Assembly: GCA_963641885.1 (NCBI GenBank)
Contig: CAVIDY010000008.1
Coordinates: forward strand, 1,398 to 65,397
From: Bacteroidaceae bacterium
Lineage (GTDB): Bacteria; Pseudomonadota; Alphaproteobacteria; RF32; CAG-239
Direction of reading: 5' to 3'
DNA: 64,000 bases
Below the pieces are notes generated by a model. That model was not told the DNA's origin. It saw nothing but the letters and a program-made list of their open reading frames with translations, and ran no database searches. Position 1 is the first letter of the stretch; the number at the start of each line of letters is the position of its first letter. Shown here piece after piece: positions 12,428 to 60,799 of this stretch. Made by a program: the position numbers and the translations under genes.

Positions 12428-12706
12428 AAATCACATCTAGCAGCGCATCTAGCGCCAAAACTGCGAAAGAGAGAAAATTCACGTACCTCTATGTACGCTA
12501 AAATTTTCTCTCTTCTTGTTTTAACGCTATCTGTACTACTATCTGCAATTTTTGAGGACTATAATTTGTACACGTCGCTTAAAAATTCCGTCGCATCTAC
12601 GCACGCTATCCAAGTTTCCGAGTATATAGGGTATTGTCATTCTTTGCTTTGAGCGTCAGCTCATTCGCAGAGAATCCAGTATGGCATATCCGCTTAAAGA
12701 ACAAGT

Positions 12707-25113: not shown

Positions 25114-25797
25114 CTAGTTTTTCTTTTCATTCCAGTCGTTGATGTCGTCCAAATAGTGATTGGCGTTTGGAGCTGCTTTAGAGATGCAGGAAACGCTGCG
25201 GCTCAGCCATAAGAAAAATTCCGTGAACTTTAAGCCGGTTAAGCGTTTAGGCGGCAAAATGGAAAATTTAGCCAATTTTTCTAAATTAGCGCCCTGCGTG
25301 CCGATGGCGTGAATTACCACTTTTTTATTTTTTTGGGCATAGCGGCAGATTTCAGCAGATTCTTCCCAGCCGTAATCGGTTGGTTCGCCGTCGCTGATTA
25401 AAAAAATCCACGGACGTTTGGAAGTAATGCCGCAGCTGTCATATAGGCATTTTTGCTCTTCTATTTTTTGCAATGCTAATTCCATGGATTTGCCGAGCGG
25501 CGTCAATCCTCCGGCTTCCATGGTCGGAGCGCTGAAATTCATGGCGTCGGTCCAATCTGAAGTTATTTGCACTTCATCTTTGCCGAAAGCTTTGATAATG
25601 AGCAATTGTACGCGCGAACTGGCGTCAATATCGTCTTTTAATTCTTTTTCCAGCGCACTTAATCCGGCGTTAAGCTGCTTTATCGGTTCGCCGCGCATTG
25701 AGCCGGAACAATCCAAAACCAACACGCAGGGAGTTCTTTCATTAGCGTTGTCGGCAAATTCAACATAAGGAATTGTGTTATTGCTTTTTTCGGTCAT
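25114..25797 (-). CDS. von Willebrand factor A domain protein, TerY-like
   Basis: MIDAS motif VLVLDCSGSM, plus GLTPLG and FLISDGEPTD. GAAGGTG RBS. Confidence 0.8.
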   Translation of the reverse strand: MTEKSNNTIPYVEFADNANERTPCVLVLDCSGSMRGEPIKQLNAGLSALEKELKDDIDASSRVQLLIIKAFGKDEVQITSDWTDAMNFSAPTMEAGGLTPLGKSMELALQKIEEQKCLYDSCGITSKRPWIFLISDGEPTDYGWEESAEICRYAQKNKKVVIHAIGTQGANLEKLAKFSILPPKRLTGLKFTEFFLWLSRSVSCISKAAPNANHYLDDINDWNEKKN

Positions 25798-40328: not shown

Positions 40329-40348
40329 TTATATTTTAGGAAAAGTTG

Positions 40349-41122
40349 ATGAGTATTGATTTGTTTACATTTTTTGCTCAGATGTTTAATCTGCTGCTGC
40401 TATTGTATTTGCTGCGCCGCTTTTTATATTTGCCAGTGCTGAAAGCGGTTGACGAGCGGCAGAAGTTTATTGAACGCGAGCTGAAAAAAGCGGCTTCTTC
40501 ACATAAGGAGGCTTTGCGCTTGGAGGCTGAATGCCAGCAGAAAATGGCGGAAATTGATGCTCAAAAACAAAATATCTTGAGTCAAACTCGGGCGGAAGCC
40601 GCTGTTTTGGCAGAAAAATTGGCAAACGAGGCAAAAGCGCAGTTTGAAACAGATAAAAGCCAATGGAAACAGCGTTTATCCAGCGAACAGAAGACATTTG
40701 AACTGGCTATGCAGGACTTGATTTTGGAATATTTCAACAAGCTTGCGGATGGTGCGCTGAAACAAATGGCAGATGTTTCGCTGAGCGATTTGATGGTAGA
40801 CAAGCTCAAAGAAAAAATAAGCGCTTTGCCGGTTCGTAAAAAACAGGAATTTGTCGCCGCTTATCAAAATAAAAAACAGCTGTTTGTCCGTTCGGCGCAA
40901 AAAATTTCGGTTGAGCAAAAGCAAAAAATAAAAGACTTTTTGCGGGTGCAGCTGGAATTGCCGGAAGAAACAAAATTCAAATTTGAAATTGATAAAAAGC
41001 TGGTTTGCGGCGTGGCTTTGCAGGCTGATGAGCAGCTGATAGACTGGAATTTAGCGGGATATATGAACGAGTTTCAAAAGAATATGCAAAGTGATGTGCA
41101 GCAGTTAATAAACAGGGGATAG
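40349..41122 (+). CDS. atpF: N-type ATPase b subunit (long form; no separate delta gene)
   Basis: N-terminal TM helix followed by a long charged coiled coil. At 257 aa it is longer than typical b subunits. Confidence 0.65.
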   Translation: MSIDLFTFFAQMFNLLLLLYLLRRFLYLPVLKAVDERQKFIERELKKAASSHKEALRLEAECQQKMAEIDAQKQNILSQTRAEAAVLAEKLANEAKAQFETDKSQWKQRLSSEQKTFELAMQDLILEYFNKLADGALKQMADVSLSDLMVDKLKEKISALPVRKKQEFVAAYQNKKQLFVRSAQKISVEQKQKIKDFLRVQLELPEETKFKFEIDKKLVCGVALQADEQLIDWNLAGYMNEFQKNMQSDVQQLINRG

Positions 41123-41125
41123 AAA

Positions 41126-42646
41126 ATGATTAAAACAGACAAGACATTTGCCGTCATAGAGCAGGGAATTGCTCAAACCAAAGCGGAACTGAAAACGGAA
41201 GAAGTCAGTGTTATTCATTCTATTTCTGCTGGCACAGCGATTGTGAAAGGTTTGGCTAAGGCACAAATGGAAGAACTGCTGGAATTTCCTAACGGCGTGT
41301 GGGGAATGGTGCAGACTTTGGCAAAAGATGCGGTCGGCGTGGTGTTTTTAGATAGTCCGGATAGTTTGAAAGCTGGCGACAGAGTGCGCCGCAGTGGACG
41401 TGTTCTAGACGTTCCGGTCGGCGATGGATTGCTGGGCAGGGTGATAAATCCGCTGGGCAAACCTTTAGATGGAAAAGGACCGATAGCCTACAGCGAGCGT
41501 CGGGCTTTGGAAATGGAAGCCTATCCGATTATGGATAGAGCGCCGGTGCAAACTCCTTTGCAGACAGGTATTAAAGCGGTTGATGCGTTTACGCCTATCG
41601 GACGCGGGCAGCGCGAGCTTATTTTAGGCGATAGGCAGACTGGTAAAACAGCTATTGCCGTTGATACGATTATAAACCAAAAGCAAACCGGAGTTATCTG
41701 CATTTATTGTGCTATCGGACAGCGTAACTCCGCAGTGGCTTCGGTTATTGCCGATTTGGAAAAATACGGCGTGATGAATCAAACAATTGTGGTGGCGGCT
41801 GCTGCCAACGATACGGCGGGTATGCAATATGCGGCGCCGTATGCGGCGACATCTATCGGCGAATATTTTATGGCGCAAGGCAAAGATGTGCTGGTGGTTT
41901 ATGATGATTTGACCAACCATGCTAGAGCATACCGTGAAATGTCGCTGCTGCTGCGCCGTCCGCCTGGACGAGAGGCTTTCCCTGGGGATATATTCTACAT
42001 TCATTCTCGCTTGCTGGAACGCTCAACTCATTTGCGTGAGGAACTTGGCGGCGGTTCGCTGACCTCGCTGCCGATTGTTTCGACTGAAGCCGGAAATATA
42101 TCGGCTTATATTCCAACCAATATTATTTCTATTACCGACGGACAGATTTATTTGGCGGCTAATTTGTATCAAAAAGGCATTATGCCGGCAATAGATACCG
42201 GACGTTCGGTTTCCCGCGTGGGCGGCGATGCTCAGCTTCCAGCGTATAAGACATTGATTGGTCCGCTGAAACTGTTTTATTCGCAGTTTGAAGAGTTGGA
42301 ATCATTTACCAAATTCGGCACCCAGCTGGATAAGGAAACTAAAAAGCGCATTAACCGCGGGCGGGCTATTCGTGCTGTGCTGGAGCAAAGCCGCTTTGAG
42401 CCGCTGACAGCACCGGAGCAGATTGCCGTGTTTATGGCGACTAACGCCGGTTTGTTTGACGGCTTGGCAACTGAAGACAATAAGAAAGCGCAGAAAACTG
42501 TGCGTGAGGTTTTGCAAGCGCAATTTTCAGCAGAAGTAACCGATATTTTAGCTCGTAAGAAGCTGTCGGCTGAAACACAGGAAAAAATGCTTTCTGTTTT
42601 CAAATCAGCCTTGCAGCGTGAGGGGATAAAGTCTGATGACGATTGA
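41126..42646 (+). CDS. atpA: N-type ATPase alpha subunit
   Basis: GDRQTGKTA Walker A and [32 protein letters not shown]. Confidence 0.9.
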
Positions 42647-43508
42647 AGCGTTGAAAAAGCGGATTAAGGTTACGGAGGATTTGCGGGAGATAGTCGGCAC
42701 AATGAAAGCGCTGTCTTCAGTTAGTATTTTGCAGTATGAACAGGCAAATACGGCGCTGGCGCAATATCGCAGCAATCTGCAGGACGCTTTTCAGGCTTTG
42801 ATTAAACAAGGCGGGCTGCCAAGTAGTGATGTTAAATCAGAACAAGGCAAACAGCTGGTGATTTTAATCGGCACCGATAACGGTATGGTCGGTAAGTTTA
42901 ATAAAGAAATTTTAGATAAAGCCAAGGTCGATTTAAAAAAACAAGGGGTTTCGCTTAAAAATACTCTGTTCTTGACTATCGGCAAAAGAATCGGCGGTTT
43001 GGCAGTGCAAAGCAATCTAAAACTTTATGCCAAGTACGCTGTAGCAAATTCAGTGAAAATGGTCAATACCATTGCCGAAACCGTGATAATGAAAATAGAC
43101 GAGGCAACCCGCAAAGAACATATTACAAGCGTTTGCGTTTGGTATCATAAGCGTAACAAAAATGAACCGGTTAGTTTGCAAAAACAGCAGATTATTCCGT
43201 TTGATTTTGCCGCTTATCAAAAGCTGAAAGAAAAGCCGTGGGGAACAAATAATCTTCCACTGATACCTATTGAACGCAAGCAGATGTTTGCCGCTTTGCT
43301 GAATGAATATTTAACCATTGCTTTGGCAAGTCAGCTTAACTATTCTCTGGCTGCGGAGCATTATACGCGTATGACCAATATGCAAAACGCTGAAAAAAAC
43401 ATTGATGAAAGTTTGGAGCAAATGAATTTGGAATATCAGCAGGAACGGCAGGAAAATATTACAGATGAGCTGATAGATGTTATTTCCGGTGCCGAAGCGG
43501 TTAAATAG
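42636..43508 (+). CDS. atpG: N-type ATPase gamma subunit
   Basis: [19 protein letters not shown]-terminal helix and the C-terminal [15 protein letters not shown] signature. Confidence 0.8.
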
Positions 43509-43700: not shown

Positions 43701-43727
43701 TAAAAAAAGCCTCCGAAAATGGAGGCT
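43701..43727 (-). terminator. rho-independent terminator closing the minus-strand accessory cluster
   Basis: On the minus strand: AGCCTCC-ATTTTC-GGAGGCT followed by T7. Lies 14 nt after the stop of the 200-aa gene. Confidence 0.7.
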
Positions 43728-43740
43728 CTGAGTTCTTAGG

Positions 43741-44343
43741 TTAGTTGTTGTTAGAAAGAGGCGGAATGTTGATTTGGGCAATATACCCTGGGCGAATCCG
43801 CTTGCTGCTGTAGTGCATATTTCCGGTTTCTATCAAATAGCGTTCGCGGCGCGTCCATTGTGCAGCTGTCGCAAAAAAGTCTTTGCCTGTTACTTCTTGA
43901 TTGCGCGGGTTCATAATATAGAGCACGCAGCCTTGATGAGGTTCAACCAAGCCGCAGCGGCTGCGTCCTACCGGCACATCAGAGTTTACAACAACGCCGT
44001 CAAGACCTTTTTTAGCCGTTTCTTGGGTGGAAAACAGGGTAGAGCCTAAAACAACACCGAAAAGCGCTGCCAATACCAGCATTAGCAGGACAGTTTTGTT
44101 TTTCAAAAAATATGTTACAGTTTCCGGTTCTTGCGGCATTAACTCTTCGTCTGTAATAAAATGGATATTTTCGGCATCGCCGTTGTCATCGTAATAATTT
44201 TCGGTAGTTTCGTTTTGCAGGCTATTTTGCGGTACAGAAATTTTTTCGGGAACTCCATAGGTTGCCGGCTGATTTTCAGGTACGCGCGGACGTTTGATTT
44301 TTCTGATTTTACGAGGCGCATTTTTAAACTGAGTTTCTTCCAT
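43741..44343 (-). CDS. bitopic membrane protein (basic/acidic cytoplasmic head, one TM helix, ~100-aa periplasmic domain)
   Basis: 200 aa. TM helix VLLMLVLAALFGVVLGSTLF. 11-nt gap after the secretin-like gene. Confidence 0.55.
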   Translation of the reverse strand: MEETQFKNAPRKIRKIKRPRVPENQPATYGVPEKISVPQNSLQNETTENYYDDNGDAENIHFITDEELMPQEPETVTYFLKNKTVLLMLVLAALFGVVLGSTLFSTQETAKKGLDGVVVNSDVPVGRSRCGLVEPHQGCVLYIMNPRNQEVTGKDFFATAAQWTRRERYLIETGNMHYSSKRIRPGYIAQINIPPLSNNN

Positions 44344-44354
44344 TTTTCTCTCCG

Positions 44355-45692
44355 TTAAATTCTGTTTTTCAAGGTTTCATTAGTTTTTAATGTGCGGACA
44401 AGGCGCGGAACCATAAAGATAATGGTTTCCGACTTAGGGTTTTGAATGCCGAATAGTTCGTTCGGTAAGCCAATAATTAAGAAATTTTCGCCAAGCTTGC
44501 TGCGGATTTTAAATTGCGTAACCTGACCATCAGTTTCTTCTAAGGTAATATCTGAAAAGATTTCATTTTTCTTTTCTACCGAAGCTTTAGCCAAAACCGA
44601 CATACCATAGGCGTTGCTTTCTGGTTTGCTGCATTTGCCTATGTCAAAGCGGGAAAGCCACAAGTTAGGCACAATAAATTTGCCTTCAGAAACTGTTTCA
44701 ATTTGAGCTTGGTTTCCTAAGAACTGCTGTAGTTTTTCAATTGAAATGTCATTTGTGGTGGTTAATACGCGACCAATAACTCCGGTTTGCGCTGTTGTGA
44801 TTGAGCCAAAGTCAAAGGCGTTCAGCAAATCTTTCCATTCAATATCTTGCTGAATGTATGGGTATAGGCGGAATACGCTGACGTCATATGCAATAAGAGT
44901 AGGGCTGTTTTCAAATGACTTTATCAGTTCCTGAATTTTGTTGCGGGTTTCAATGTCTGCGTCAAAAGTAATGGAATAATCCGCCCAGTTGGTTACAATG
45001 TTGGTTATTCCTGCGCCGCGGATAACATCAAGCAAGCCTAAAATAATCGGGCGAGACGGAGGGGTGTATAGCGTCATATTGACGCGGCGGCTTAAAGTTA
45101 AAATTTTATCTTTGGCGTTGTAGGTGGTGTAAATGTCCGCCGAATCGGCAATCATTTTAACCACTTCCGAAAATTCGCCTTTTAAATCTTCGGCAGAAAT
45201 GCTGGTATATGGACCATCGGCGGAAGAAACGCGTATGCCTGCTTCTTTGGTTAGTTTTACCAATGCTTGCTCCGCCGGCATCATATCAAAAGTGTAGCCG
45301 GTTACTTCAAAGCGCGGCAGTGGGTCGTTGCGACCGTTTCGCTCAAGTTTGAAGGCGGAGTTTATATATGGCAAAGTCAGTACCATCTGCTGGGTTTTCC
45401 AGTTAACGTTGCAGCGCAGCGGAGTTTCCAAGTCCAAAGCATTAGCTCCTTCCGGAGTGCGGACAATCGCTGGTTCTTCAGGGTCTTTGAACACGATTTC
45501 TTCTTTGGAAAACTTCATAGTGTTTATGTCTGAAGTAGGCTGATTTACGGTTTCTGCCGGAACTTGCGCGCTTATGGCAGCGGTGTTGTCTTCGCTAAAA
45601 TCAATATCATCGCGGGCAATGCAGGCTGAAAGTCCGGATAAAAGCGCGGACAATCCTAAAACTAAACTGAAAGTGTTAATGTGTTTTTTCAT
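44355..45692 (-). CDS. outer-membrane lipoprotein, secretin-like (tentative)
   Basis: Lipobox LSAC. N0/N1-like alpha-beta modules (MPAEQALVKLTKEAGIRV...ILTLS; ITNIVTNWADYSITFDADIETRNKIQELIKSFENSPTLIAYDVSVFRL). C-terminal pattern FKIRSKLGENFLIIGLPNELFGIQ...ETIIFMVPRLV resembles the end of secretin domains. Confidence 0.5.
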   Translation of the reverse strand: MKKHINTFSLVLGLSALLSGLSACIARDDIDFSEDNTAAISAQVPAETVNQPTSDINTMKFSKEEIVFKDPEEPAIVRTPEGANALDLETPLRCNVNWKTQQMVLTLPYINSAFKLERNGRNDPLPRFEVTGYTFDMMPAEQALVKLTKEAGIRVSSADGPYTSISAEDLKGEFSEVVKMIADSADIYTTYNAKDKILTLSRRVNMTLYTPPSRPIILGLLDVIRGAGITNIVTNWADYSITFDADIETRNKIQELIKSFENSPTLIAYDVSVFRLYPYIQQDIEWKDLLNAFDFGSITTAQTGVIGRVLTTTNDISIEKLQQFLGNQAQIETVSEGKFIVPNLWLSRFDIGKCSKPESNAYGMSVLAKASVEKKNEIFSDITLEETDGQVTQFKIRSKLGENFLIIGLPNELFGIQNPKSETIIFMVPRLVRTLKTNETLKNRI

Positions 45693-45704
45693 TTTATGTT
45701 GTTC

Positions 45705-46211
45705 CTATTGCTGCTGATTATTGTCATCGGTGTTGTCTGAATTTTGGCTGATGTTGTTTTCTGCCATAAGTTTGTTCATTAACTCATCTATATTCATACC
45801 AGCACCAGAGGTTGGATCAACCGATTTATCAAAATTACTCATAACTTCATTCATTTTTTGCACTTCGTTAGGGTCGGATCGCAGCATTTCTGGAGATTGG
45901 TTGCTGGTCAGCTCTTCTTGATAAATGGATAGATTTTTACGCAGAGCTTCTACACCGCCAGCGATTTTCTTTTCTATATACGGATAGAGTTCTTTATGCT
46001 CTAAAATATAGTTGCCAGTTTCACAAATTTCTTCCAAAACATCAAGCACATAAGGATAAAATTTATATTCTTCAAGCGCAATGTTGCCGCTGCGGATACA
46101 ACGTGCCGCAATGCGGGAAATGGTGCGGTCGTAATAATCTATCAGAACAATGTAGTTGTCCACATACCAGAGAGATTCCTTGGTAATTGGTGCGAGATTT
46201 TCTTCTGCCAT
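45705..46211 (-). CDS. hypothetical acidic cytoplasmic protein
   Basis: 168 aa, helical N-terminal part, acidic Asn/Gln-rich tail. 12-nt gap to the secretin-like gene. Confidence 0.55.
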   Translation of the reverse strand: MAEENLAPITKESLWYVDNYIVLIDYYDRTISRIAARCIRSGNIALEEYKFYPYVLDVLEEICETGNYILEHKELYPYIEKKIAGGVEALRKNLSIYQEELTSNQSPEMLRSDPNEVQKMNEVMSNFDKSVDPTSGAGMNIDELMNKLMAENNISQNSDNTDDNNQQQ

Positions 46212-46274: not shown

Positions 46275-48725
46275 TTATTTTGGATTTTGCGGTAAAGGAT
46301 TACCGTTTTCATCGACATACTCCCAGTCTCCGTCATCGCCGGAAACAGGATTACCGTTTTCATCGACATATTCCCAGTCTCCGTCATCGCCGGAGATCGG
46401 GTTACCGTTTTCATCGACATATTCCCAATCGCCGTCATCGCCGGAAACAGGATTGCCGTTTTCATCAACATATTCCCAATCGCCGTCATCACCTGAAACA
46501 GGATTGCCGTTTTCATCGACATATTCCCAATCGCCGTCATCTGCTGCAGAATTGTTTTCTTTGGTGAAGGCGGTTTGCGTTTGTTGAGCCGCTGCTGTTT
46601 GAGCCTGCGGTTTCGGCAATTCATCGTCACCGCCCAAAGATATAGGCTTTATATTGTCCAAGGAAATATCATCATCCGAGCTTAGCGCATTTTTTATTTT
46701 TAACAAAGCATCTTCGTACGAATGCAACTGTGACTTTTTATATTCTTGGTTTTGCGGTTCAGGTTCTTTCGGCAAATCTACGGCAGGCTTGCTGGTAGGA
46801 GTTGGTTTTGTTTCAACAGGTCTTACCGATTCAGACTTTTGAACCGCAGCAGGCGTGGTGAAAGAATCAGCAGAGAAAATATCCGGTTCAAAAGAATTGT
46901 CTTCTTCGGAAGGAATGGCTGCCAATATATCTTCTATACTAAGGTTTTCATCTTTGGGAGTAGGTTTCGGTTGCTCCTTAACCGGTTCAGAATTAGGAGC
47001 AGGTTTTGGCTGCTCTTTAACCAATTCAGGCTTTGGAGCAGGTTTTGGCTGCTCCTTAACTGGTTCAGGATTTGGAGCAGGTTTCGACTGCTCTTTAACC
47101 AATTCAGGCTTTGGAGCAGGTTTCGGCTGCTCCTTAACTGGTTCAGGATTTGGAGCAGGTTTTGGCTGTTCCTTAACTGGTTCAGGCTTTGGAGTAGGTT
47201 TTGGCTGCTCCTTAACTGGTTCAGGCTTTGGAGTAGGTTTGGGCTGTTCCTTAACCGGTTCAGGCTTTGGAGCAGGTTTCGGCTGTTCTTTAACCAATTC
47301 AGGCTTTGGAGCAGGTTTTGGCTGCTGCTGAACAGGGGCAGTTGGTTGTTTTTCTTTGTCTTTAAGGTTGACCGTTAAAGCCTCGTTATTTTTATGCTCG
47401 TTTGCCGAATTGTCTTTTTTAGAGGCTTTTTCATCAATTTTTTTGTTCGGCTGTTGGTCGTTTTTATTCTGATTTTTCAGGTCGTTAATTTTGTTTAAGC
47501 TTTTATTTATGCGGCTAAGCAAAGTGTCAGAAGAGTTTTTTGCCTCGTTGCTGAAGTTTTGGGTTAACTTATTGGTTGTTTCGCTTATTTTATCGCTGAA
47601 GCTTTTTATAAAATTATTTTTATCTTTTGCTTGCTCTGCTTTTTTTGTATTATTGCTTTCATTCTTTTTTGGCTGCTGAGCATTTGCCGTATTAGAAGTA
47701 TTTTGTTTAGAAACAATAGTATTACCGCCAGTTTGGTCTTCTACATCAACATCTTGCGAAACCACAACTTTTACAGTGGAGCGTGGTGCGGACTGCGCTA
47801 GAGTTTGCGCTAATTCCTGCTGCGATTGGGTGATTGCCTGCACTAGCATTTCACCAAAAGATTTTATGGCTTCAAGCTGTTGCGAGTTGTTTTGACGCAA
47901 TGCTTCGGCAAGAGCCGTTGCCGGTATTCCGGAATTTAATGCTGCGGCTAGTCCGGCGTTGTTTTCTGTCGAGGTGCCGCCGTTTAGAATATTTTTATTC
48001 AAAGCAGCAATAATTTGCATCATATCTTCATGGCGGCGGGCATCGTTTTGCATAAGCGTTTGATTTATGCTGCTAAAGTAGGAGGTATCCATATTGATGT
48101 TGTTAACAGTGGTTGAAGAATTATTTTGCTGCTGAGCTGTCATTCCTGTCGGCTGTACTGGTGCTGCAGAAAAGGTTTGCTGCTGCGTCGCTGATGTTGT
48201 ATTAACCTGACCTGCAAGGCGGTTGGTTAAAGTTTGCATACTGGCAGCATAGGCATTGAATGATTTGTTCAGCAAAATTGCCAAATCGGTCATATTGTTA
48301 TTAGATGCAGCATTGCTGCTTTGCAGTGCCGCCGCCAAAGAATTTGCTAAACTTTCGGCAAAATCAGCGCCTAAAGTAAGCTCACCGCCGTTTCCGGAGT
48401 GCTGTTTCAGGCTGTCGATTGATTTTTTTTCTTCTTCTATGTTTTGGGCTATGAGTTCGCTGGTGCCGCCGGAATTTTTACCTTGTTTTTCTTCAACTTC
48501 TTTAACGTGTTCCAAAAAAACGCGTCCGCCAGGCAGGGTTGCCAGCAATTCTTTGGTTTTTTCTGAGATATTAAGCAGAGACTCGTCAAATTCATCTTTT
48601 TTTGCTTGATTGAAAATATGAATTTGGTGGAAAATATTTAAATAACGTTGGGCAACCAGAATCGGGTCTTCTTCTTCCGGATTGCTGGAATATTCTACAT
48701 CATCTTCAATTAAGTCTTCTGCCAC
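46275..48725 (-). CDS. 816-aa repeat protein: conserved N-domain, Q/N/A-rich middle, PKP repeats, five acidic Trp repeats
   Basis: GTG start with GGAG/GAGG upstream and no TM helix. The N-domain (AQRYLNIFHQIHIFN...LPGGRVFLEHVKE) is shared with the 272-aa gene upstream. Confidence 0.7.
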   Translation of the reverse strand: MAEDLIEDDVEYSSNPEEEDPILVAQRYLNIFHQIHIFNQAKKDEFDESLLNISEKTKELLATLPGGRVFLEHVKEVEEKQGKNSGGTSELIAQNIEEEKKSIDSLKQHSGNGGELTLGADFAESLANSLAAALQSSNAASNNNMTDLAILLNKSFNAYAASMQTLTNRLAGQVNTTSATQQQTFSAAPVQPTGMTAQQQNNSSTTVNNINMDTSYFSSINQTLMQNDARRHEDMMQIIAALNKNILNGGTSTENNAGLAAALNSGIPATALAEALRQNNSQQLEAIKSFGEMLVQAITQSQQELAQTLAQSAPRSTVKVVVSQDVDVEDQTGGNTIVSKQNTSNTANAQQPKKNESNNTKKAEQAKDKNNFIKSFSDKISETTNKLTQNFSNEAKNSSDTLLSRINKSLNKINDLKNQNKNDQQPNKKIDEKASKKDNSANEHKNNEALTVNLKDKEKQPTAPVQQQPKPAPKPELVKEQPKPAPKPEPVKEQPKPTPKPEPVKEQPKPTPKPEPVKEQPKPAPNPEPVKEQPKPAPKPELVKEQSKPAPNPEPVKEQPKPAPKPELVKEQPKPAPNSEPVKEQPKPTPKDENLSIEDILAAIPSEEDNSFEPDIFSADSFTTPAAVQKSESVRPVETKPTPTSKPAVDLPKEPEPQNQEYKKSQLHSYEDALLKIKNALSSDDDISLDNIKPISLGGDDELPKPQAQTAAAQQTQTAFTKENNSAADDGDWEYVDENGNPVSGDDGDWEYVDENGNPVSGDDGDWEYVDENGNPISGDDGDWEYVDENGNPVSGDDGDWEYVDENGNPLPQNPK
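46297..46541 (-). repeat. 51-bp tandem coding repeat, ~4.8 copies (GDDGDWEYVDENGNPVS)
   Basis: Period counted directly: ATTACCGTTTTCATCGACATACTCCCAGTCTCCGTCATCGCCGGAAACAGG is 51 nt. Copies differ by only a few bases. Confidence 0.85.
46958..47328 (-). repeat. 39-bp tandem coding repeat, ~9.5 copies (PKPAPKPEPVKEQ)
   Basis: Period counted directly as 39 nt. The protein shows nine xVKEQ units with P/L, A/T and K/N variation. Confidence 0.85.
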
Positions 48726-48778
48726 CTGTTGTGCCTCACTCCATAAAAAACAACTTATTCTTTTCTAATATATAAGAA

Positions 48779-48806
48779 AGAGAGTAAATTTCTTGTTAAA
48801 ATATAG
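48779..48806 (-). promoter_or_regulatory. conserved 28-bp upstream element, copy 2 (minus strand CTATATTTTAACAAGAAATTTACTCTCT)
   Basis: 25/28 identical to 49687..49714. Lies 54-81 nt upstream of the GTG of the 816-aa gene and contains a -10-like TATATT. Confidence 0.35.
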
Positions 48807-48823
48807 GCAGTAAGAGCGAAAAA

Positions 48824-49642
48824 TTATAGCCCGATAAGCACTACTTTGTGGATTTTTGCAATATTGCTGATAGTAAACAGTATTTTTTCTTCAGGATTGC
48901 AGCGCAAACCATATAATTGTCCGCGTTCGTCCGTATAGAGCCTAACCAGTTTTGCTTCGGCTTTGTTAAAAAAGTAGAGCGCTAAATCGCCTGAACCGAC
49001 AAGCTCGGATTTGTCAATATAAAGTATGGCTTTGTCGGATAAATCCAGTCCGACGCATTTAGCGTTAAGTTTAACCGCATAAACCGAATGCTTGTTTTGC
49101 AAGGCAATGGGGCAGGATATCAATCTTAGGATTGTGGATTTACTGATAAGCAAGTTTCCGTCAGCAGTGGTTGAGCCAAAAAGCGGAATTGTGCTAATTG
49201 TATGCGCAAGATCAGAATTTGTTGTCAGATTTGCACTTTTGAGTGCGTCAACCAAAGAGTTTGCTAATTTTTCGGCAAATTCGTTGCCGATAGCCAGCTC
49301 GCCGACTGTTACGTTTATGTTGTGCTTTTTGTGATGTGTTTCTGCTGATTTTTTTTCTTCTTCAATGTTTTTAGTAATCTGATTAAGCGTTTCGTCCGAA
49401 ATTGTATCGTCATCTTCAAGTTCTTTTATATGTTCCAGCAAAACTTTTCCGCCAGGCATATTGACCAGCAGTTTTTTTATTTTGTCATTCATCTGCAAAA
49501 GAGATTGGTCAAATTCCGCTCTCTTTTCAGCATTGAAAATATGAATTTGATGAAAAATATTTAGATAGCGCTGAGCATCAAGAATCGGATATTCTTCATC
49601 TTTTTCGCTGGCAACATCATTTTCTCTTATTACGTCTGACAC
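48824..49642 (-). CDS. chimeric 272-aa protein: N-domain of the 816-aa protein fused to an S24-like C-domain of the XRE regulator
   Basis: N-terminus: PILDAQRYLNIFHQIHIFN...MPGGKVLLEHIKE. C-terminus: PLFGSTTADGN...GQLYGLRCNPEE...KIHKVVLIGL, versus LPVFGTSNAEGN...GQLYGLRWNPDE...KIHKVVAINL in the regulator. Confidence 0.65.
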   Translation of the reverse strand: MSDVIRENDVASEKDEEYPILDAQRYLNIFHQIHIFNAEKRAEFDQSLLQMNDKIKKLLVNMPGGKVLLEHIKELEDDDTISDETLNQITKNIEEEKKSAETHHKKHNINVTVGELAIGNEFAEKLANSLVDALKSANLTTNSDLAHTISTIPLFGSTTADGNLLISKSTILRLISCPIALQNKHSVYAVKLNAKCVGLDLSDKAILYIDKSELVGSGDLALYFFNKAEAKLVRLYTDERGQLYGLRCNPEEKILFTISNIAKIHKVVLIGL

Positions 49643-49686
49643 TATAAAACCTGTTTAAAAAAATTTACTCCCGCTTTATAAAAACG

Positions 49687-49714
49687 AGAGAGTAAATTCT
49701 TTATTAAAATATAG
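49687..49714 (-). promoter_or_regulatory. conserved 28-bp upstream element, copy 1
   Basis: AGAGAGTAAATTCTTTATTAAAATATAG on the plus strand. Lies 45-72 nt upstream of the GTG of the 272-aa gene. Confidence 0.35.
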
Positions 49715-49730
49715 CGAATATTCAAAAAAA

Positions 49731-50720
49731 TTATAAGTTGATAGCCACAACCTTATGAATTTTTGTTAAATCGCTGTTGCTGAAATTTGTCCGTTCATCA
49801 GGATTCCAACGCAAGCCGTAAAGCTGACCGTTTTCATCTTCGCGAACGCTGATTAGCATAGCTTCGGTTTCGCTGATGTAATATAAGGCAATGTCGCCGG
49901 CGCTGACAACTTCTGTTTTATCTATAAACAAAATAGCGCGGCTCGGCAAAAGCGAACCCAAACGGCGGGTGCACAAATTTACGGCATAAGCTTCCGGTTT
50001 GTTTTGCAGCTGCACTGGGCAAACAACTTCTTTTACGGCATTGGCGCGGTCAATGACAATATTGCCTTCGGCGTTGCTGGTGCCAAAAACAGGCAGCATA
50101 GCCGTTTCATCGTCATCGGCAGTTTGCGCGGCAACATTAGAATATCTGGAGTTGTTTAAAAGTTTATAGCGGGTTTCATTGTGTTCGATAATATCTTCTA
50201 AAACGCCTTCATTTTCCAGCTTTTTGATTTCGGCTTTCAATTTGTCGAGAGGCATAGAAAAAGCTTTGGCGATGTTTTGATATTCTTTGTCAGAAACTTC
50301 TCTTTGTCCCATTTCTATACGGTGATAAACCGACAGAGTCATATCAGCGCTTTCGGCAACTTCAATTAAGGTCAAACCTTTGTCAGTGCGAATGTGGCGC
50401 AAACCAGCACCCAAAGTTTTCAAACCAGCATTTTGGTTGATTTTGCAGCGTCTTTCCTGTTCGCGTTTCCAAGCTTGAACAACATCTTGCTGTGAATTTT
50501 GTTCATTAACGTATAAATCTTGCAGCGAGCAGTCAATAAGTTCGGCAACCTGAATCAGCTGTTCTTGATTGAGACGGCGGTAACCTTTTTCAATTTTAGA
50601 AATAGCCGACAAGCTGACTCCCAAATGATCAGCCAATTCTTGCATAGACATACCGCGCAATCTTCTGTGCATTCTGATTTGATTAGGGAAAATAATTTCT
50701 TCCATATCATCTTTCTCCAT
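49731..50720 (-). CDS. transcriptional regulator with two XRE-type HTH domains and a C-terminal S24/LexA-like beta-barrel domain
   Basis: HTH 1: IRMHRRLRGMSMQELADHLGVSLSAISKIEKG. HTH 2: LRHIRTDKGLTLIEVAESADMTLSVYHRIEMG. The C-domain follows the S24 pattern. Confidence 0.75.
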   Translation of the reverse strand: MEKDDMEEIIFPNQIRMHRRLRGMSMQELADHLGVSLSAISKIEKGYRRLNQEQLIQVAELIDCSLQDLYVNEQNSQQDVVQAWKREQERRCKINQNAGLKTLGAGLRHIRTDKGLTLIEVAESADMTLSVYHRIEMGQREVSDKEYQNIAKAFSMPLDKLKAEIKKLENEGVLEDIIEHNETRYKLLNNSRYSNVAAQTADDDETAMLPVFGTSNAEGNIVIDRANAVKEVVCPVQLQNKPEAYAVNLCTRRLGSLLPSRAILFIDKTEVVSAGDIALYYISETEAMLISVREDENGQLYGLRWNPDERTNFSNSDLTKIHKVVAINL

Positions 50721-50902: not shown

Positions 50903-53900
50903 CTATTTAGAGTCTTTATCTTTAACATCTTTACCAGCTAAAATGTCTTTCATTTCTTCGGCTGTAAGTACGGTTTTGTGCAAACCTTTTTTCAGTTTTT
51001 CATCTTGCAGCTGGTTAAGGTGTTCTTGGAACTCTTTGGCGTTGAAACCAGCCATGGCTTTTTGCGCGTCCATACCATAGCCCCAAGCTCCGTTTTCATC
51101 TAAAGGCTGAGAAATTCGGCTGCGGCTGTGGGCTTCATCAGTAAAGCTGTATTTTATAGTTTTAATAAAAGTTCCATCAGTCTGTTTAGCAAAAGATGTG
51201 GTTTTGCTTTGCACGCCGTTGCTCTTCTGCATTGTGATGTTGCCGTTGATGTCAGTGGTTTTATTTTCTATAATCATCTGACCATTATCCATTGAGGCGC
51301 GTATTTCCTGTTTGCTGCCGTTATTGTTGATTTGCTGAATAGTGACGCTGCCGTCCTTATTCATTGTAACTTTGCGGTCTTTGAAACGGCTGTCAAGGTT
51401 TTGACCACGAGCTTTTAAGTGCAGAGCCGCCATCGCAGCCAGGGCGTCGGCTTTGTTTTCGGCGCTGACGCCGTTCATAATTTGATTATAGGCGTGCATA
51501 TTGGTTGAACCGTCTTTGTTAATTAAATATTTTGAGCTTACGTTTTTGAACTGCACATCGCTGCCAATTACTTTACCGTTAGCGTCAACCATGGTGCGTT
51601 TGCTCATAAAGGTGTCATTGGTAGTTTGTACGCTGCCTTTGTGGCTTTCAGTTACCATATCCGTATCTTTGGCGCGTTTATATTTAAGTATATTGCCGTT
51701 TTGGTCGGTAACTAAAACGCTGCTGCCGTCTTTTGAGGTATATTTAACAGTGCCGTCATCCTGAACGGATTTGGTCATTTGCTCATATTTGGCAAACGCA
51801 CCTTTACCGCTGGTTCTGACTGCGAATGTCTGCTCGCCGTTAGCATCAGTCATTGGCTTAAATGCTTTATCGGCAACAGTTTTTTGATGCGTTTCTTTGG
51901 TTTGCGTCCACACGCCGTTAGCGTCCTTGGTAACGGTGCGGGTTTGTGTAAACCCTGGGAGACCCTTGAAACGAGCCTGATAGCCAATTACATTGCCGTC
52001 GGCGTCGCGGAGCTTGCGTCCGCCGAGAGCAACCAAAGCCATGCCTTTTAGCTGATTCTTTTTGCTGCGCACCCAGTTGCCAGCAAGCGAGTTTGTGGCT
52101 TCACCAACAGCTTCCGCACCTTTCTTGGCGATATGACCTGCGCCTTTGGCTATCGGCTTAGCGGCGGAAGCAACCGCACCGCCGACCATGCGACCGATAC
52201 CTTGGCGACCAAAGTCGGCTCCGGTTGCAAATTTGCTTGCCATAGACGGAACTTCATCAATAAAGCATACAAACAAGAATATAAAGGCAAAGATTTTGAA
52301 AAATCCGACCCCCCACCAAGCAAGCCCGTTTGCTTTGAAAGCGGTGATTAGCAATACAGGGTCAAAAGTGGAGAGCGATTCATCGGTTAGCCCAATCCAC
52401 TCTTTGAACATAGAGGTTAAAATAAACATCAGCACGGCTAAGAATATCAGGTTGAACATGGCGTTCATAAAGAAGTTCCAAATAATGCCAAGGTATTTAG
52501 CCGTTGATTTGAAGGCAAAAGCGGCTATAGAGCACGGAATCATCGCCGCGGCAATGCACAGCTGCAAAATGCAGTCTATCAGACACCATGGGAAGGCAAA
52601 GAGCAAAAAGACGCCGACCAGCCATAATCCCATGCCGGACAGAAAGTAGCCAAGGTGCGGGATAACGCCGTCCCACAAGGCCTTGTCATGAAAAGCGTAG
52701 CAGGTGGAATAGTTACCGAGCGCCAAGAGAACACCGACGCTGTCTTCCAAATTTTTGATAGTGCAGATGATTGATTGTCCAAGGTTGCGAGGCAAACCGC
52801 CTTGAGAAGTTTCTTGCATGCCTTTGTCGGTGTCATAGCCGACAATTCCCCCCATATAGTCGGCGGAACTGTCGCAGTTGGAGTTAGGGTTGAGCATGTT
52901 GGCAAAAGTCAAGCCAGTTTGCATTACAGGGGTTAAAGTTAAGTCCATTACCTGATACAGCGCGCCTGATAAAATATATACAACAATGGCGACGCGTGCG
53001 CCCTGCAGAAATATGCCTTTCAGCAAATCTCCAGGGGAGGCGCCTTGGAACGAAGAAATTTGTTTTAAAATATAAATGGCTAGCCAAATTAAAAAGCCGA
53101 TAAGCACAAGGTTTTTGCTGGGAGCCGCTAATTTGCTGATGGCGGTTTGCGCAAGGTTGCTGGCAGCGTTGAAAATTGTTTTGAAAATACCGCAAGTGGT
53201 GCAGGTTTGCTTATCCAAATAATCTGAAAGTATGCAAGATGATTCTCCGCTGCCGTCAACAAATTCTTCACCATTCGGAGCGCCTGGTCCAACAGGCATA
53301 CTGGCATCATCAACTTCGTTGCCGGAAGCCGAATTGCCGTCACTGAAGCTTTGCATACCACCTATGCAAGATTTTGTGCTGGTAGGGCAGCTGCCGCAAA
53401 GGGCTTGCAGGTTACCGCAAGACGCTTGCATGGTTTGACTGTTGCCTACATAAGTTGAACTTGCGGACATTGCGCTATTAACAACTTCAAAGTGCAGGTG
53501 GATTGCATAGTAACGGGAGCAGTTTTTAGCCTGAAGTGGGTTATCGCAGACTGGACCGGAGCGGCTGGAAGCATTAGAGCCGCCGACAACACCGATTGCT
53601 TGGTCTTTTTTTACTTCGCCGCTGCATTTAGTCTGCTTAAATAAATGGCGGTAAATGGTGGAGTAATATTGTCCATTTTTGCCTGCTCCGTCACAGTGTT
53701 TGGTGTGACGGATAACGGTTGTACGTCCGCCGCCAGTGGATATGGAGCAACCCATAACAACGCCGTCAGCTGCGGCATAGGCAAGCACGTTAGTTTTTTT
53801 GCCAGTACCTAAATCGCTTCCGTAGTGGTTTCGAGTGGAGGAACGGGCACCTTCGCGGTTATAGGAGCCGACACTGCTGACGGGAACAGAGTTGAAACAC

Positions 53901-54154
53901 CCGCCGCTGGTTTGGTCGGCAACACATTTTGCTTTAACTTGTTGGGAAGCGCTGCCGACTAAGGAACCGCTTGAAGTTTTGTTTGGTGAGCAGCCGCCCT
54001 GCGATTCACTGTTGGTTGCGGCGCTGCATTTAGGAGTAACGCCGTTGCAGCTGGAAAAAGCCGGAGCCGCAGACAAAGCAAAGCAGCCTGCACTTAAACA
54101 AAGTATCAGCAGGTTTGTTGAAAATTTTTGTAAAAATGTTTGCCGCTTTTTCAT
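50903..54154 (-). CDS. M23 (LytM-type) metallopeptidase head + TrbL/VirB6-like polytopic module + ~400-aa hydrophilic C-terminal extension
   Basis: Signal peptide. HYGSD (HxxxD) and HLHFE (HxH) zinc ligands. CTTCGIF motif. VirB6-like blocks (LIGFLIWLAIYILKQI...; LIDCILQLCIAAAMIPCSIAAFAFKST). Confidence 0.65.
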   Translation of the reverse strand: MKKRQTFLQKFSTNLLILCLSAGCFALSAAPAFSSCNGVTPKCSAATNSESQGGCSPNKTSSGSLVGSASQQVKAKCVADQTSGGCFNSVPVSSVGSYNREGARSSTRNHYGSDLGTGKKTNVLAYAAADGVVMGCSISTGGGRTTVIRHTKHCDGAGKNGQYYSTIYRHLFKQTKCSGEVKKDQAIGVVGGSNASSRSGPVCDNPLQAKNCSRYYAIHLHFEVVNSAMSASSTYVGNSQTMQASCGNLQALCGSCPTSTKSCIGGMQSFSDGNSASGNEVDDASMPVGPGAPNGEEFVDGSGESSCILSDYLDKQTCTTCGIFKTIFNAASNLAQTAISKLAAPSKNLVLIGFLIWLAIYILKQISSFQGASPGDLLKGIFLQGARVAIVVYILSGALYQVMDLTLTPVMQTGLTFANMLNPNSNCDSSADYMGGIVGYDTDKGMQETSQGGLPRNLGQSIICTIKNLEDSVGVLLALGNYSTCYAFHDKALWDGVIPHLGYFLSGMGLWLVGVFLLFAFPWCLIDCILQLCIAAAMIPCSIAAFAFKSTAKYLGIIWNFFMNAMFNLIFLAVLMFILTSMFKEWIGLTDESLSTFDPVLLITAFKANGLAWWGVGFFKIFAFIFLFVCFIDEVPSMASKFATGADFGRQGIGRMVGGAVASAAKPIAKGAGHIAKKGAEAVGEATNSLAGNWVRSKKNQLKGMALVALGGRKLRDADGNVIGYQARFKGLPGFTQTRTVTKDANGVWTQTKETHQKTVADKAFKPMTDANGEQTFAVRTSGKGAFAKYEQMTKSVQDDGTVKYTSKDGSSVLVTDQNGNILKYKRAKDTDMVTESHKGSVQTTNDTFMSKRTMVDANGKVIGSDVQFKNVSSKYLINKDGSTNMHAYNQIMNGVSAENKADALAAMAALHLKARGQNLDSRFKDRKVTMNKDGSVTIQQINNNGSKQEIRASMDNGQMIIENKTTDINGNITMQKSNGVQSKTTSFAKQTDGTFIKTIKYSFTDEAHSRSRISQPLDENGAWGYGMDAQKAMAGFNAKEFQEHLNQLQDEKLKKGLHKTVLTAEEMKDILAGKDVKDKDSK

Positions 54155-54174: not shown

Positions 54175-56475
54175 TTAGTTAGAACTGTTGTTTCTTTCTT
54201 GCTCGCTTTGGTATTCTGCATCTAGCTGACGCTGATAATCACTGTCATCATAGCCTTTGTTCTTTTGTTTTTGGCGTTGTCTATAGTATTGCTGCGGTTT
54301 CTTTTGCATGCTCTTGCCAAGACTTTGCAGAAAACCTCCGGCTATGCCCATTCCGGCGTTGGCGGTTTCGGTTGCAGTGCCGCGGACGCTGCGGATAACC
54401 ACTTGACCGCTCTTTTTCAAAACCAATTTACCTTTATCTTTTAGCGTTTCTGCATTTTTCCAATCTTGAGAGCCTTGCCGAGCCAGTTGTTTTATGGTTC
54501 TGTAGGCTTGCTGCGGATGGCGGACAGCCTTAAAAGCGTTGCCGATTGTCAAACTGTGACCAGTAGGGCGGGAATAGCTTTTGAATTGCTGCCATTTGGT
54601 TTGCGGTAATTCTGCGGATTGAGCATTTTCAGACTGTGTTTCTCTGGTGTTGGAATTTTTAGAGCCAGTTACTCTGTTGTCTGTTGTTTGCGGAGTACCG
54701 CTGTTATCAGCTGTCGGCTGACCGCCACTTTCCGAATCGTTATTTATAGGGGTATCCGGCGTATCGTTGGTGTTATCAGGCATATCATTGTTACCTGCAG
54801 TGTCGTCGGCATTGTTTGTCGGAAACGGGGTCGCTCCGCCGGAAGGCGAAGTTTGCGGATTGGTTCCGCCTTGCGCAGGAGCAGCGCCGCCGCCAAATTT
54901 TTTGTTAGCCAGTTTATTGCCAAGTTTTTCTATGCCTTTTCCACCTTGAGTTAAAGCGACGTCTCTGGCAAAACGACCGATAGGATTAACAACGCTTTTT
55001 TTAATTTGACCAACGGCTTGAGTGCCGAGATGGTGCATAGCGGTATCGGCAGAGCCAAGCGCACCGTCGCCAAAGAAAGTGGAAAGATAGTTTTGAATGC
55101 TTGACGATAGAATTTTGAAACCAAAAATCAACGCGAACAGAATGATTAGAATGTTAACCGAGCTTAAATCGTAGGATTCACTGAATTTTTCCATGCTGTT
55201 CGCGTATTTGCCGGAGTTAAGAGTTAGCCAAGTTTTAGCGGTGTTTGCCAAACCATCGCCCAAACCATTATCTGTCGCACCCATAATCATCCAAAATTCA
55301 TCATCTTTTACCATGCCAAGGCTGGCGTCAACTAATTTTACCGCATAGGCAGTACCGATGGAAACAAAGGCAAACAGCATAGCGTTATAGATGACGATGG
55401 CAATGTTTTCGGACAATTTACTTTGGGTTGGAGGAAACGGCCAAAGCGAAATAGACAGCGGCAAAAGCAAAGTGGCAAAGCCAAGCTTGAAAGAAATATC
55501 TATAAAATACATACCAATCGACATGCACATAAAGAAGCCGGTGAGGTAAATTAAGAGACCGGAAATAAAGTAGTTAAGCAGCGGTACAACTACCGTGCAG
55601 CTGACTAATGATTTGACTGCGGCGGAAAAACCAGCACCGCCGTCCAAGCAGATAGGAGAAACTTTGGTCGAAAAGCACATCAAAGCGTGTCCGCGGGCAA
55701 ACAGCACGCTAAGTGACTGATAAATCAGCGCCATCATATCTTTGAGGTCTATTAAAATATCTTCGGCAAACAGGCGGTGTTTCATTATTTCATTGTTGAC
55801 AATTTGACCGTTTTTCTCTGCAGCGCTTTGGCAATCGGAAGGTAAAACATACATATTTTCAGGATCGTTGGCTAAATCGTAGTCGCTGGAGCTGCCGCCA
55901 CTAAGAGCGCCTCCGCCGCCAGCAAGGGAAGTGCTGCTATGCCAGGTTTTAAGCGCGCTTAAACCAACACCGTAGACAATTTTATGGTTTCCGACAACTT
56001 TATAGTTTCTGCCTCTTGCCCAAGCCGGAGCTTTACCTTTTTTATCCATCCAGGTTGCATAATAAAAAGTGGCGCCGTTGGTAACATCTTTCAGGCTTCC
56101 GGCAATGGCTTGCCGCGCTATTTCCAAGCATTTTTTCCAGGCCCGAGCATTAGCGCTGTTTAGTTTGCTTGCCCAGCTTTCTATGTTTTGAACAGTCCAG
56201 TTTCTCTTATCATTCCAAAATGAAAATTGGTATCTTGCCAAGCAGACGTCAGATAGTTTTACCGTTTGTCCGCCTTTAGCGTGAGCCTGATAATAGTTGC
56301 GGCGGTTCATAATCACGCTGGCAACGGTTTGCATGCCGGTGACGCCTTCGCCGCCAGCTTCGCCGAACAATGTGGCGGTTAAATAAGCTTCTTCATATGA
56401 CAAAGTAAAAGCAGTGCTTGTGTAAAGCAGCAAACTTGCGAGGGTTATAAGTATGTATTTCTTAAACTTTTTCAT
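54175..56475 (-). CDS. SleB/CwlJ-type cell wall hydrolase head + C-terminal half of a TrbL/VirB6-like module + low-complexity tail
   Basis: Signal peptide. LFGEAGGEG...VASVIMNR...YQFSFW...GATFYYATW...VGNHKIVYG (Hydrolase_2 pattern). TM block YFIDISFKLGFATLLLPLSISLWPFPPT. Confidence 0.65.
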   Translation of the reverse strand: MKKFKKYILITLASLLLYTSTAFTLSYEEAYLTATLFGEAGGEGVTGMQTVASVIMNRRNYYQAHAKGGQTVKLSDVCLARYQFSFWNDKRNWTVQNIESWASKLNSANARAWKKCLEIARQAIAGSLKDVTNGATFYYATWMDKKGKAPAWARGRNYKVVGNHKIVYGVGLSALKTWHSSTSLAGGGGALSGGSSSDYDLANDPENMYVLPSDCQSAAEKNGQIVNNEIMKHRLFAEDILIDLKDMMALIYQSLSVLFARGHALMCFSTKVSPICLDGGAGFSAAVKSLVSCTVVVPLLNYFISGLLIYLTGFFMCMSIGMYFIDISFKLGFATLLLPLSISLWPFPPTQSKLSENIAIVIYNAMLFAFVSIGTAYAVKLVDASLGMVKDDEFWMIMGATDNGLGDGLANTAKTWLTLNSGKYANSMEKFSESYDLSSVNILIILFALIFGFKILSSSIQNYLSTFFGDGALGSADTAMHHLGTQAVGQIKKSVVNPIGRFARDVALTQGGKGIEKLGNKLANKKFGGGAAPAQGGTNPQTSPSGGATPFPTNNADDTAGNNDMPDNTNDTPDTPINNDSESGGQPTADNSGTPQTTDNRVTGSKNSNTRETQSENAQSAELPQTKWQQFKSYSRPTGHSLTIGNAFKAVRHPQQAYRTIKQLARQGSQDWKNAETLKDKGKLVLKKSGQVVIRSVRGTATETANAGMGIAGGFLQSLGKSMQKKPQQYYRQRQKQKNKGYDDSDYQRQLDAEYQSEQERNNSSN

Positions 56476-60498: not shown

Positions 60499-60799
60499 TT
60501 TTATTCTCCCCGTTGGTTTTACCGCGGCGTCTGCGGGATTTTTTCTGCGTTTTTGTCGGCTCGGCAACATTTTGTTTGAGGTGCAGTTTTTGTTTAATAA
60601 AATTAGAAATCCTGACAAGGAAATTGGTATATTTGTTTTGCGGAACGCCGACCAGCAGCAAACCAGCAAGCAATACTAAAATAAAGCCGATTTTAGCCGA
60701 ATAGGCAAAGAAACTTGTGCCGATAATATCCAAGGCGTGCGAACTCACTAGTGAAAACACGACAATAAACATTAGCAATGTAAGAAAAATCGACTTCAT
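60491..60799 (-). CDS. 102-aa two-TM protein with strongly basic C-tail
   Basis: Overlaps the next gene start by 8 nt (translational coupling). Hydrophobic segments at residues 4-20 and 37-52. Tail KKSRRRRGK. Confidence 0.5.
   Translation of the reverse strand: MKSIFLTLLMFIVVFSLVSSHALDIIGTSFFAYSAKIGFILVLLAGLLLVGVPQNKYTNFLVRISNFIKQKLHLKQNVAEPTKTQKKSRRRRGKTNGENKNV

Follow-up and report, generated by a model that had tools for sequence, protein, structure and literature searches.

How does a gene come to carry the front of its downstream neighbor and the back of its upstream neighbor, and what might such a gene do? The question is raised by a 64,000-nt stretch of DNA (the window) from contig CAVIDY010000008.1 of GenBank assembly GCA_963641885.1, recorded as a Bacteroidaceae bacterium and placed by GTDB in the Alphaproteobacteria (RF32; CAG-239). 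Three consecutive open reading frames (ORFs) are present there on the minus strand. The first (49731..50720; 329 amino acids [aa]) encodes a regulator in which two helix-turn-helix (HTH) domains of the HTH_3 family, identified with Pfam, precede a C-terminal domain (residues ∼206 to 329; the C-domain) that is predicted by AlphaFold2 (AF2) and Foldseek to resemble those of LexA and lambda CI and that is missing the catalytic residues. The last (46275..48725; 816 aa) encodes a large protein with a conserved N-terminal domain (residues 1 to ∼148; the N-domain) and a long low-complexity region. Between them lies the gene in question (48824..49642; 272 aa), termed the hybrid: by alignments, hidden Markov models (HMMs), and AF2 modeling, it consists of a helical N-domain (residues 1 to ∼148), a short disordered linker, and a LexA/CI-like beta domain (∼149 to 272).

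A first-pass annotation of the window had described these neighboring genes as sharing modules in a staggered way, a description that holds at the protein level. Residues 1 to 145 of the hybrid match residues 1 to 145 of the 816-aa protein (52% identity; E = 3e-39), and its residues 150 to 272 match residues 207 to 329 of the regulator (46% identity; E = 1e-40). At the DNA level, self-comparison with blastn yields one collinear match, 49838-49236 versus 48931-48319 (66% identity over 626 nt; E = 2e-39), that crosses the spacer; the similarity is thus a collinear duplicated segment and not short motifs only. Unit 1 of the duplication, delimited by HMM domain limits and pairwise alignments (49199..50105, minus strand, 907 nt), comprises the C-domain codons of the regulator, its stop codon, spacer 1, and the N-domain codons of the hybrid. 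Unit 2 (48282..49198, minus strand, 917 nt) comprises the C-domain codons of the hybrid, its stop codon, spacer 2, and the N-domain codons of the 816-aa gene. The units (50105..49199 and 49198..48282) abut exactly, collinear and head to tail, as predicted by tandem duplication. Nucleotide identity between them is 60% for the C-domain codons (z = 14 against shuffles), 67% for the stop codon and spacer (z = 5.5), and 69% for the N-domain codons (z = 22), and the 150 nt beyond each unit boundary are not similar (z about 0). The spacer value confirms the earlier proposal that both intergenic regions are related, and the extent originally given for the duplicated region, 48321-50108, proved essentially right. 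Both breakpoints fall within disordered linkers, the join is in frame, and both parent genes are intact and full length in the hybrid-bearing genomes.

To determine the ancestral arrangement, one genome per species was surveyed with HMMs of the N-domain and the C-domain. All of the resulting 75 loci belong to uncultured Alphaproteobacteria from the guts of humans, ruminants, rabbits, and other animals, with taxonomic placement by record titles. Full-length orthologs of the hybrid were found at 95, 80, 70, 58, 54, and 54% identity, in loci with the same three-gene order, and in all hybrid-bearing loci the hybrid is adjacent to the regulator on the same strand. A protein with the N-domain directly follows the regulator in nearly all 75 loci, and the combination of N-domain and C-domain in a hybrid occurs only in the window and in loci L001-L007, L009-L012, and L017. 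In about 60 of the 75 species, including all deep branches, the regulator is followed directly by the N-domain gene across a spacer of ∼90 nt. For example, the unduplicated locus of a more distant relative, L008, consists of the regulator, 91 nt, the N-domain protein, and the same downstream genes, with no hybrid.

The history of the two halves was traced with neighbor-joining, distance-based trees, those of the copies being built on a subset of the loci. The hybrid N copies form one clade and the hybrid C copies form another, each with 100% bootstrap support; both clades join near the base of the closest species group, and the N/C junction is common to all hybrid lineages. Since the copies are each monophyletic and share a junction, recurrent duplication is excluded. 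In a species tree built on 2177 alignment columns of five flanking proteins, hybrid-bearing lineages (window/L009, L011/L012, and L001/L005/L017) are interspersed with hybrid-less ones (L013/L015, L016, and L018), so that a single gain entails about three losses. The hybrid-less species of the close clade have a normal spacer of ∼95 nt and no remnant, which is what recombination between direct repeats would leave. A core of ∼21 nt is still identical between both spacer copies, and the hybrid could have been removed by recombination between direct repeats, e.g., within this core.

The patchy distribution on the species tree and the basal attachment of the hybrid clade to the close clade would also suit a different history, in which the three genes are old, independent families or in which the hybrid was acquired by horizontal transfer or originated repeatedly. 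We consider this very unlikely. The hybrid is absent from about 60 deeper-branching species, the spacer was duplicated along with the coding parts in units that abut exactly, the N copies and the C copies each form a single clade and share a junction, and mobile-element genes were not found nearby. Furthermore, N-domain divergence in the hybrid exceeds that in the parent by a constant factor of about 1.5 to 1.7 across all lineage pairs, and such constancy fits vertical descent. With abutting in-register units, unduplicated outgroups, monophyletic copies, and intact parents all in place, the earlier proposal of one tandem duplication of C-domain, spacer with promoter, and N-domain is upheld. 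The hybrid thus originated, with little doubt in our view, by a single tandem duplication of ∼0.9 kb in the ancestor of a small clade of uncultured gut Alphaproteobacteria. The copied segment took in the last ∼124 codons of the regulator, a spacer of ∼90 nt that holds the promoter for the gene downstream, and the first ∼148 codons of that gene. With breakpoints in linkers and an in-frame join, a new ORF of N-domain plus C-domain arose between intact parents, along with a promoter copy of its own. Since then, purifying selection has kept the hybrid in at least three lineages, and about three others have cleanly lost it.

The duplication is old, not recent: the hybrid has been kept in at least three species lineages, and the paralogous copies, which are 60 to 69% identical in nucleotide sequence, are saturated at synonymous sites (proportion of synonymous differences [pS], 0.5 to 0.8; synonymous divergence [dS], >0.9 or not computable). 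Conversely, close ortholog pairs of the hybrid have ratios of nonsynonymous to synonymous divergence (dN/dS) of 0.06 to 0.15 in the C half and 0.07 to 0.09 in the N half, and the ORF is intact in many independent assemblies that represent at least six clusters at 54 to 95% identity. Tandem duplications are common and usually transient, and the hybrid was lost in several lineages, a pattern that would also be seen if it were a nonfunctional by-product, that is, a decaying pseudogene or an assembly artifact. This is scarcely credible for an intact ORF with a shared junction that recurs in so many independent metagenomes, and the low dN/dS values, found despite synonymous saturation between the copies, effectively refute it. 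Purifying selection on the orthologs indicates that the hybrid is functional and, on sequence evidence, a working gene.

The two halves of this gene diverged unequally. Over the same species pairs, the C half accumulated 3 to 10 times the amino acid change (dN) of the regulator C-domain, with an especially long branch in the window lineage, and the N half accumulated about 1.5 times the change of its parent copy. The hybrid retains the invariant motifs of the N-domain. The CTRRLGS motif that is invariant in the regulator is lost from the C half, where KCVGL or HRLGP is now found. Within the C half, however, the last 36 residues (GQLYGL.WNP.ER...KIHKVV.I.L) are 61 to 81% identical to the regulator, compared with 39 to 42% for the remainder of the domain. 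Gene conversion as the cause of this conservation was ruled out because pS is 0.55 to 0.91 there; the rest of the C-domain is saturated at synonymous sites to an equal degree. Saturated synonymous sites combined with conserved residues point to selection as what has conserved the C terminus of the hybrid.

What, then, are the two domains that were joined? The regulator belongs to a family of 1279 database proteins (E ≤ 1e-20), with 73 to 95% identity among the matches listed and many members in gut Alphaproteobacteria. Pfam places HTH_3 in two stretches of the protein, and CTRRLGS, REDENGQLYGLRWNPDER, and HK motifs are invariant in the family, which is annotated merely as an XRE/HTH protein and partially matches the two-HTH model Wmk. 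In the AF2 models, the C-domains of the regulator and the hybrid have predicted local distance difference test (pLDDT) values of 80 to 92, with that of the hybrid at ∼88. Their best Foldseek matches in PDB are a lambda CI fragment (2ho0; target-normalized template modeling score [TMt], 0.64 to 0.70), LexA (0.57 to 0.59), UmuD′, and the CI protein of coliphage 186 (2fkd; 0.61 to 0.62), and phage CI and LexA-like repressors lead the matches in a viral fold library. Both C-domains are accordingly modeled with the S24 fold. Searches at the sequence level failed to establish S24 membership: neither isolated C-domain matches Pfam Peptidase_S24 even at E ≤ 10, a PDB sequence search with the C-domain (hmmsearch) gave no match, and hhalign against LexA, CI, and UmuD reference sequences returned a probability of only 8%. 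The kinship is therefore one of fold.

The catalytic features of S24 proteins are also missing. In a profile-profile alignment of low support, K156 of LexA aligns with Ile/Leu and S119 aligns with Arg253, and an alternative register, which brings the invariant Ser256 of LGSLLP to the nucleophile position, still provides no Lys. In hybrids, this Ser is replaced by Leu or Pro. In place of an Ala-Gly (or Cys-Gly) cleavage site, the regulators have (Glu/Asp)-Gly and the hybrids have Asp/Ser/Asn-Gly. Thus, the first-pass label of S24-like domains stands for the predicted fold but not for the Ser-Lys dyad, the cleavage site, or a Pfam match, and since the catalytic residues are not conserved, the C-domain is probably a pseudo-peptidase, LexA-like in fold and not self-cleaving. 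In the LexA/CI family, the C-domain mediates dimerization.

The N-domain is a predicted helical bundle and contains a motif, AQRYLNIFHQIHIF, that is invariant in 74 species. Synonymous codons vary freely at this motif, which locates the constraint in the protein; a constraint on the nucleotide sequence was ruled out on the same grounds. No match to the N-domain was obtained in Pfam, NCBIfam, PDB sequence, PDB fold, or viral fold searches; a match to UvrA_inter was below threshold and was treated as noise, and a profile search of the protein database returned unannotated fragments only. The hybrid contains no HTH or other DNA-binding Pfam family, and its N-domain model has no structural match to HTH proteins. 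One other combination was encountered: P0166, a predicted protein of 244 aa on a single 1.4-kb metagenome contig, combines a divergent N-domain (VAQRYLNVYRQMHIF) with part of an HTH_3 domain and a tail resembling RuvA_C. Given the single short contig, an assembly chimera is the probable explanation, a further fusion of this N-domain being the less likely one.

Beyond the N-domain, the 816-aa protein contains a 13-aa Pro/Lys repeat (9.8 copies) and a 17-aa DWEYVDENGNP repeat (4.8 copies), which are visible in the gene as in-frame tandem arrays at 46952-47333 (39 nt by 9.8; PEPVKEQPKPAPK) and 46296-46541 (51 nt by 4.8; SGDDGDWEYVDENGNPV), respectively. The large protein ranges from 368 to 1120 aa across species, a range that indicates that the region after the N-domain is hypervariable. 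Lengths of 719, 823, and 708 aa were found in L001, L002, and L004, strains in which the hybrid is identical.

The third component of the duplicated segment is the spacer. Across species (window, L008-L082), the spacers share an invariant box, TTAAYMWGWWATTTAC, which in the window reads TTAAT AAAG AATTTAC, and a sigma-70-like promoter of the form (T/A)(T/A)GAAA-16 nt-TAnAAT. In the wider clade of the window, a 12-pair hairpin has arms that flank the −10 hexamer, with TATAAT in the loop, and is followed by a T-run. Compensatory double changes are seen at 5 of the 12 pairs, and many pairs are U-G, which is valid on the sense strand only; the covariation and the sense-strand U-G pairs together indicate an RNA hairpin. 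In distant clades, a separate G+C-rich terminator is followed by the same box and promoter. We read the spacer hairpin as the terminator of the regulator gene, with the promoter of the downstream gene nested inside it. The palindrome was also considered as an operator of the regulator; the G-U pairs restricted to the sense strand, the T-run, and the decay of the palindrome in spacer 2 disfavor this, and its half-site was not found at the regulator's own promoter. Promoter-like matches that overlap both stop codons are less likely to be real promoters. In distant clades, these matches lie upstream of the separate terminator, and the element conserved downstream of the terminator is TTGAAA-16 nt-TAnAAT. 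Elsewhere in the window, an everted repeat between convergent genes (12465-12515; AGAGAGAAAATT-N22-AATTTTCTCTCT) has arms similar to those of the spacer hairpin in the opposite arrangement and is possibly a bidirectional terminator.

The two copies of the spacer in the window had different fates. Spacer 1, between the regulator and the hybrid (49643..49730, minus strand, 88 nt), has the box, a promoter-like element (AAAGAA-16 nt-TATAAA), an intact hairpin with arms at 49698-49688 and 49672-49662 (terminator-like over 49690..49668), and the T-run. Spacer 2, between the hybrid and the 816-aa gene (48726..48823, minus strand), has the same box, a promoter-like element (AAGAAA-16 nt-TATATT), and a strong GAGG ribosome-binding site; the left arm of its hairpin is kept (48790-48780), the right arm has decayed, and no terminator-like hairpin is left. 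The right arm was lost in all three hybrid-bearing lineages, by different substitutions in each. Judging from this decay, the hybrid and the 816-aa gene would now be cotranscribed, and the hybrid is probably the first gene of the downstream operon.

What the hybrid does can be approached from what it has kept. A C-domain with the fold of the dimerizing LexA/CI family, no HTH, a retained N-domain motif, and a retained set of 36 C-terminal residues suggest, tentatively and by analogy, that the hybrid is an HTH-less partner of the regulator comparable to SinI. The first-pass annotation had suggested an anti-repressor or adaptor, a role that the hybrid may have and with which the pattern of conservation is compatible. 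Through the retained LexA/CI-type C-terminal surface, the hybrid would pair with the regulator, or with the regulator's partner; the resulting complexes of hybrid and regulator would carry fewer DNA-binding heads and thereby modulate expression of the operon. The retained N-domain would link the hybrid to whatever binds the N-domain of the large protein, and expression of the hybrid from the regulated promoter would close a feedback loop.

The unequal divergence of the two halves also fits a hybrid that acts through its N-domain and uses its C-domain for homodimerization only, as a decoy, an assembly cofactor, or a chaperone-like adaptor for the partner of the large protein's N-domain. Dimerized in this way, the N-domain of the hybrid would compete with that partner or nucleate it. 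AQRYLNIFHQIHIF, invariant in 74 species, is kept in all hybrids with free synonymous variation, as would befit a protein interface, and the N half changed only about 1.5 times faster than its parent, compared with 3 to 10 times for a C half that lost the regulator-specific motif. Generic dimerization does not explain, however, why the last 36 residues were selectively conserved, and the N-domain has no Pfam, PDB, or viral fold match to indicate a partner. An N-domain-acting hybrid is accordingly a possibility to which we give less credence than to an HTH-less partner of the regulator. More speculative still, and in our estimate improbable, is that the regulator C-domain naturally binds the invariant N-domain of the large protein as its ligand, so that the ancestral locus was a partner switch and the duplication fixed this interaction in one polypeptide. 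If that were true, export, assembly, or titration of the large protein would free or sequester the regulator, following the logic of FlgM and ExsE, and the hybrid would be a self-contained feedback element heading its own operon, a new regulatory component obtained in one mutational step.

Several points weigh against a singly originated hybrid that partners the regulator. A single origin requires about three losses, and the basal attachment of the hybrid clade could partly reflect long-branch attraction in simple neighbor-joining trees. The hybrid C-domain is strongly diverged (3 to 10 times in dN) and has lost CTRRLGS, so that pairing with the regulator may be gone, and the regulator has no compensating change in hybrid-bearing species. 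With these points taken into account, the explanation as a whole, covering origin and function, is still likely to be the best one.

Comparison with known systems shows what is shared and what is not. In Bacillus subtilis, SinI/SinR (and SlrA/SlrR) provide the example of a small anti-repressor, encoded by an adjacent gene, that lacks a DNA-binding domain and contains the repressor's multimerization module, with the heteromer blocking the DNA-binding oligomer (PMC3917956). Like SinI, the hybrid shares a domain with the regulator (46 to 52% identity over the C-domain), has no DNA-binding domain, and is encoded 88 nt downstream of the regulator. Unlike in SinI, where the shared module consists of helical hooks, the shared module here is a LexA/CI-type beta domain; in addition, the N-domain of the regulated gene forms part of the hybrid, the one segmental duplication that produced the hybrid can be traced, and its heteromer with the regulator is a proposal. 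The regulator itself resembles LexA, lambda CI, and UmuD (S24) in its succession of HTH, linker, and beta-rich C-terminal domain of the same fold, but it has two HTH domains instead of one and lacks a Pfam S24 match, the Lys base, and the Ala-Gly site. CI of coliphage 186 is likewise an HTH repressor, and its C-terminal domain matches in fold (2fkd). That domain serves for oligomerization and does not undergo self-cleavage, and a separate anti-repressor, Tum, controls it. 186 CI comes from a phage, however, and has a single HTH, and Tum bears no relation to it, whereas the candidate modulator here, the hybrid, is a paralog of the regulator.

Chimeric genes that arise from tandem duplications across two neighboring genes have been documented mainly in Drosophila (PMC4069613). 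As in those cases, the breakpoints here lie inside two adjacent genes, both parents are intact, and the 5′ part of one gene is fused to the 3′ part of the other at the junction. Unlike them, the hybrid is bacterial, inherits an intergenic promoter, is of old origin with conservation in several species, and joins the domains of a regulator and its target. Literature searches that covered this group of bacteria and chimeric genes in bacteria yielded nothing specific. Thus, the mechanism of origin by tandem duplication is already known, as are HTH-less paralogs of repressors; the fusion of a regulator domain to the head of a neighboring target gene in one step, promoter included, is new, and so is a clear reconstruction of such a birth in natural bacterial genomes.

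The surroundings of the three genes are those of an ordinary alphaproteobacterial chromosome, with genes for a CckA-like kinase, MipZ, FolD, MiaB, PhoH, Lnt, and ATP synthase. The remainder of the downstream operon (43706..46211, minus strand) encodes an acidic protein of 168 aa (46211..45705), a lipoprotein of 445 aa (45692..44355), and a single-pass membrane protein of 200 aa (44343..43741), and it ends in a strong G+C-rich terminator (43729..43706). None of the three proteins matches a known family or structure in Pfam, family, and structure searches, and no support was found for a first impression that the lipoprotein ends like a secretin. The order of these genes is the same in relatives, including the unduplicated locus L008. 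Upstream of the regulator is a row of large VirB6/TrbL-like membrane proteins (50903-54154 and 54175-56475, also 58537-60669 and 60835-63063), a layout that resembles the multiplied VirB6 genes of Rickettsiales-type type IV secretion loci. Two members of the row without a TrbL match of their own carry N-terminal cell wall hydrolase domains: a Peptidase_M23 match, below threshold, in a 1083-aa protein and a SleB-like Hydrolase_2 domain in a 766-aa protein. In L008, the regulator cassette does not adjoin VirB6/TrbL-like genes. Among the ATP synthase genes (40346-41122 and 42636-43508), the b and delta (OSCP) subunits are apparently fused in one 258-aa ORF, and the operon ends with the gamma subunit gene, continuing into neither a beta nor an epsilon gene. 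Finally, the products of three adjacent genes at 22907-25797 are a Ser/Thr protein kinase, a PP2C phosphatase, and a VWA-domain protein, a eukaryote-like signaling trio that is unrelated to the hybrid.

Well-documented births of functional genes in bacteria are mostly ascribed to horizontal transfer or to duplication of whole genes. At this locus, natural genomes directly reveal the arrangement before the duplication, the duplication itself with its limits, and what became of the new gene: selection retained it, its halves diverged asymmetrically, the duplicated terminator decayed, and clean loss occurred repeatedly. For a poorly known group of gut bacteria, the locus also brings to light three undescribed items: a highly conserved family of two-HTH regulators with a probable LexA-like pseudo-peptidase domain, a family of conserved N-domains, and the promoter/terminator element that they share. 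By placing the dimerization-type domain of a regulator behind the conserved head of a neighboring gene, such a duplication offers a plausible one-step route to a new modulator of a regulatory circuit.

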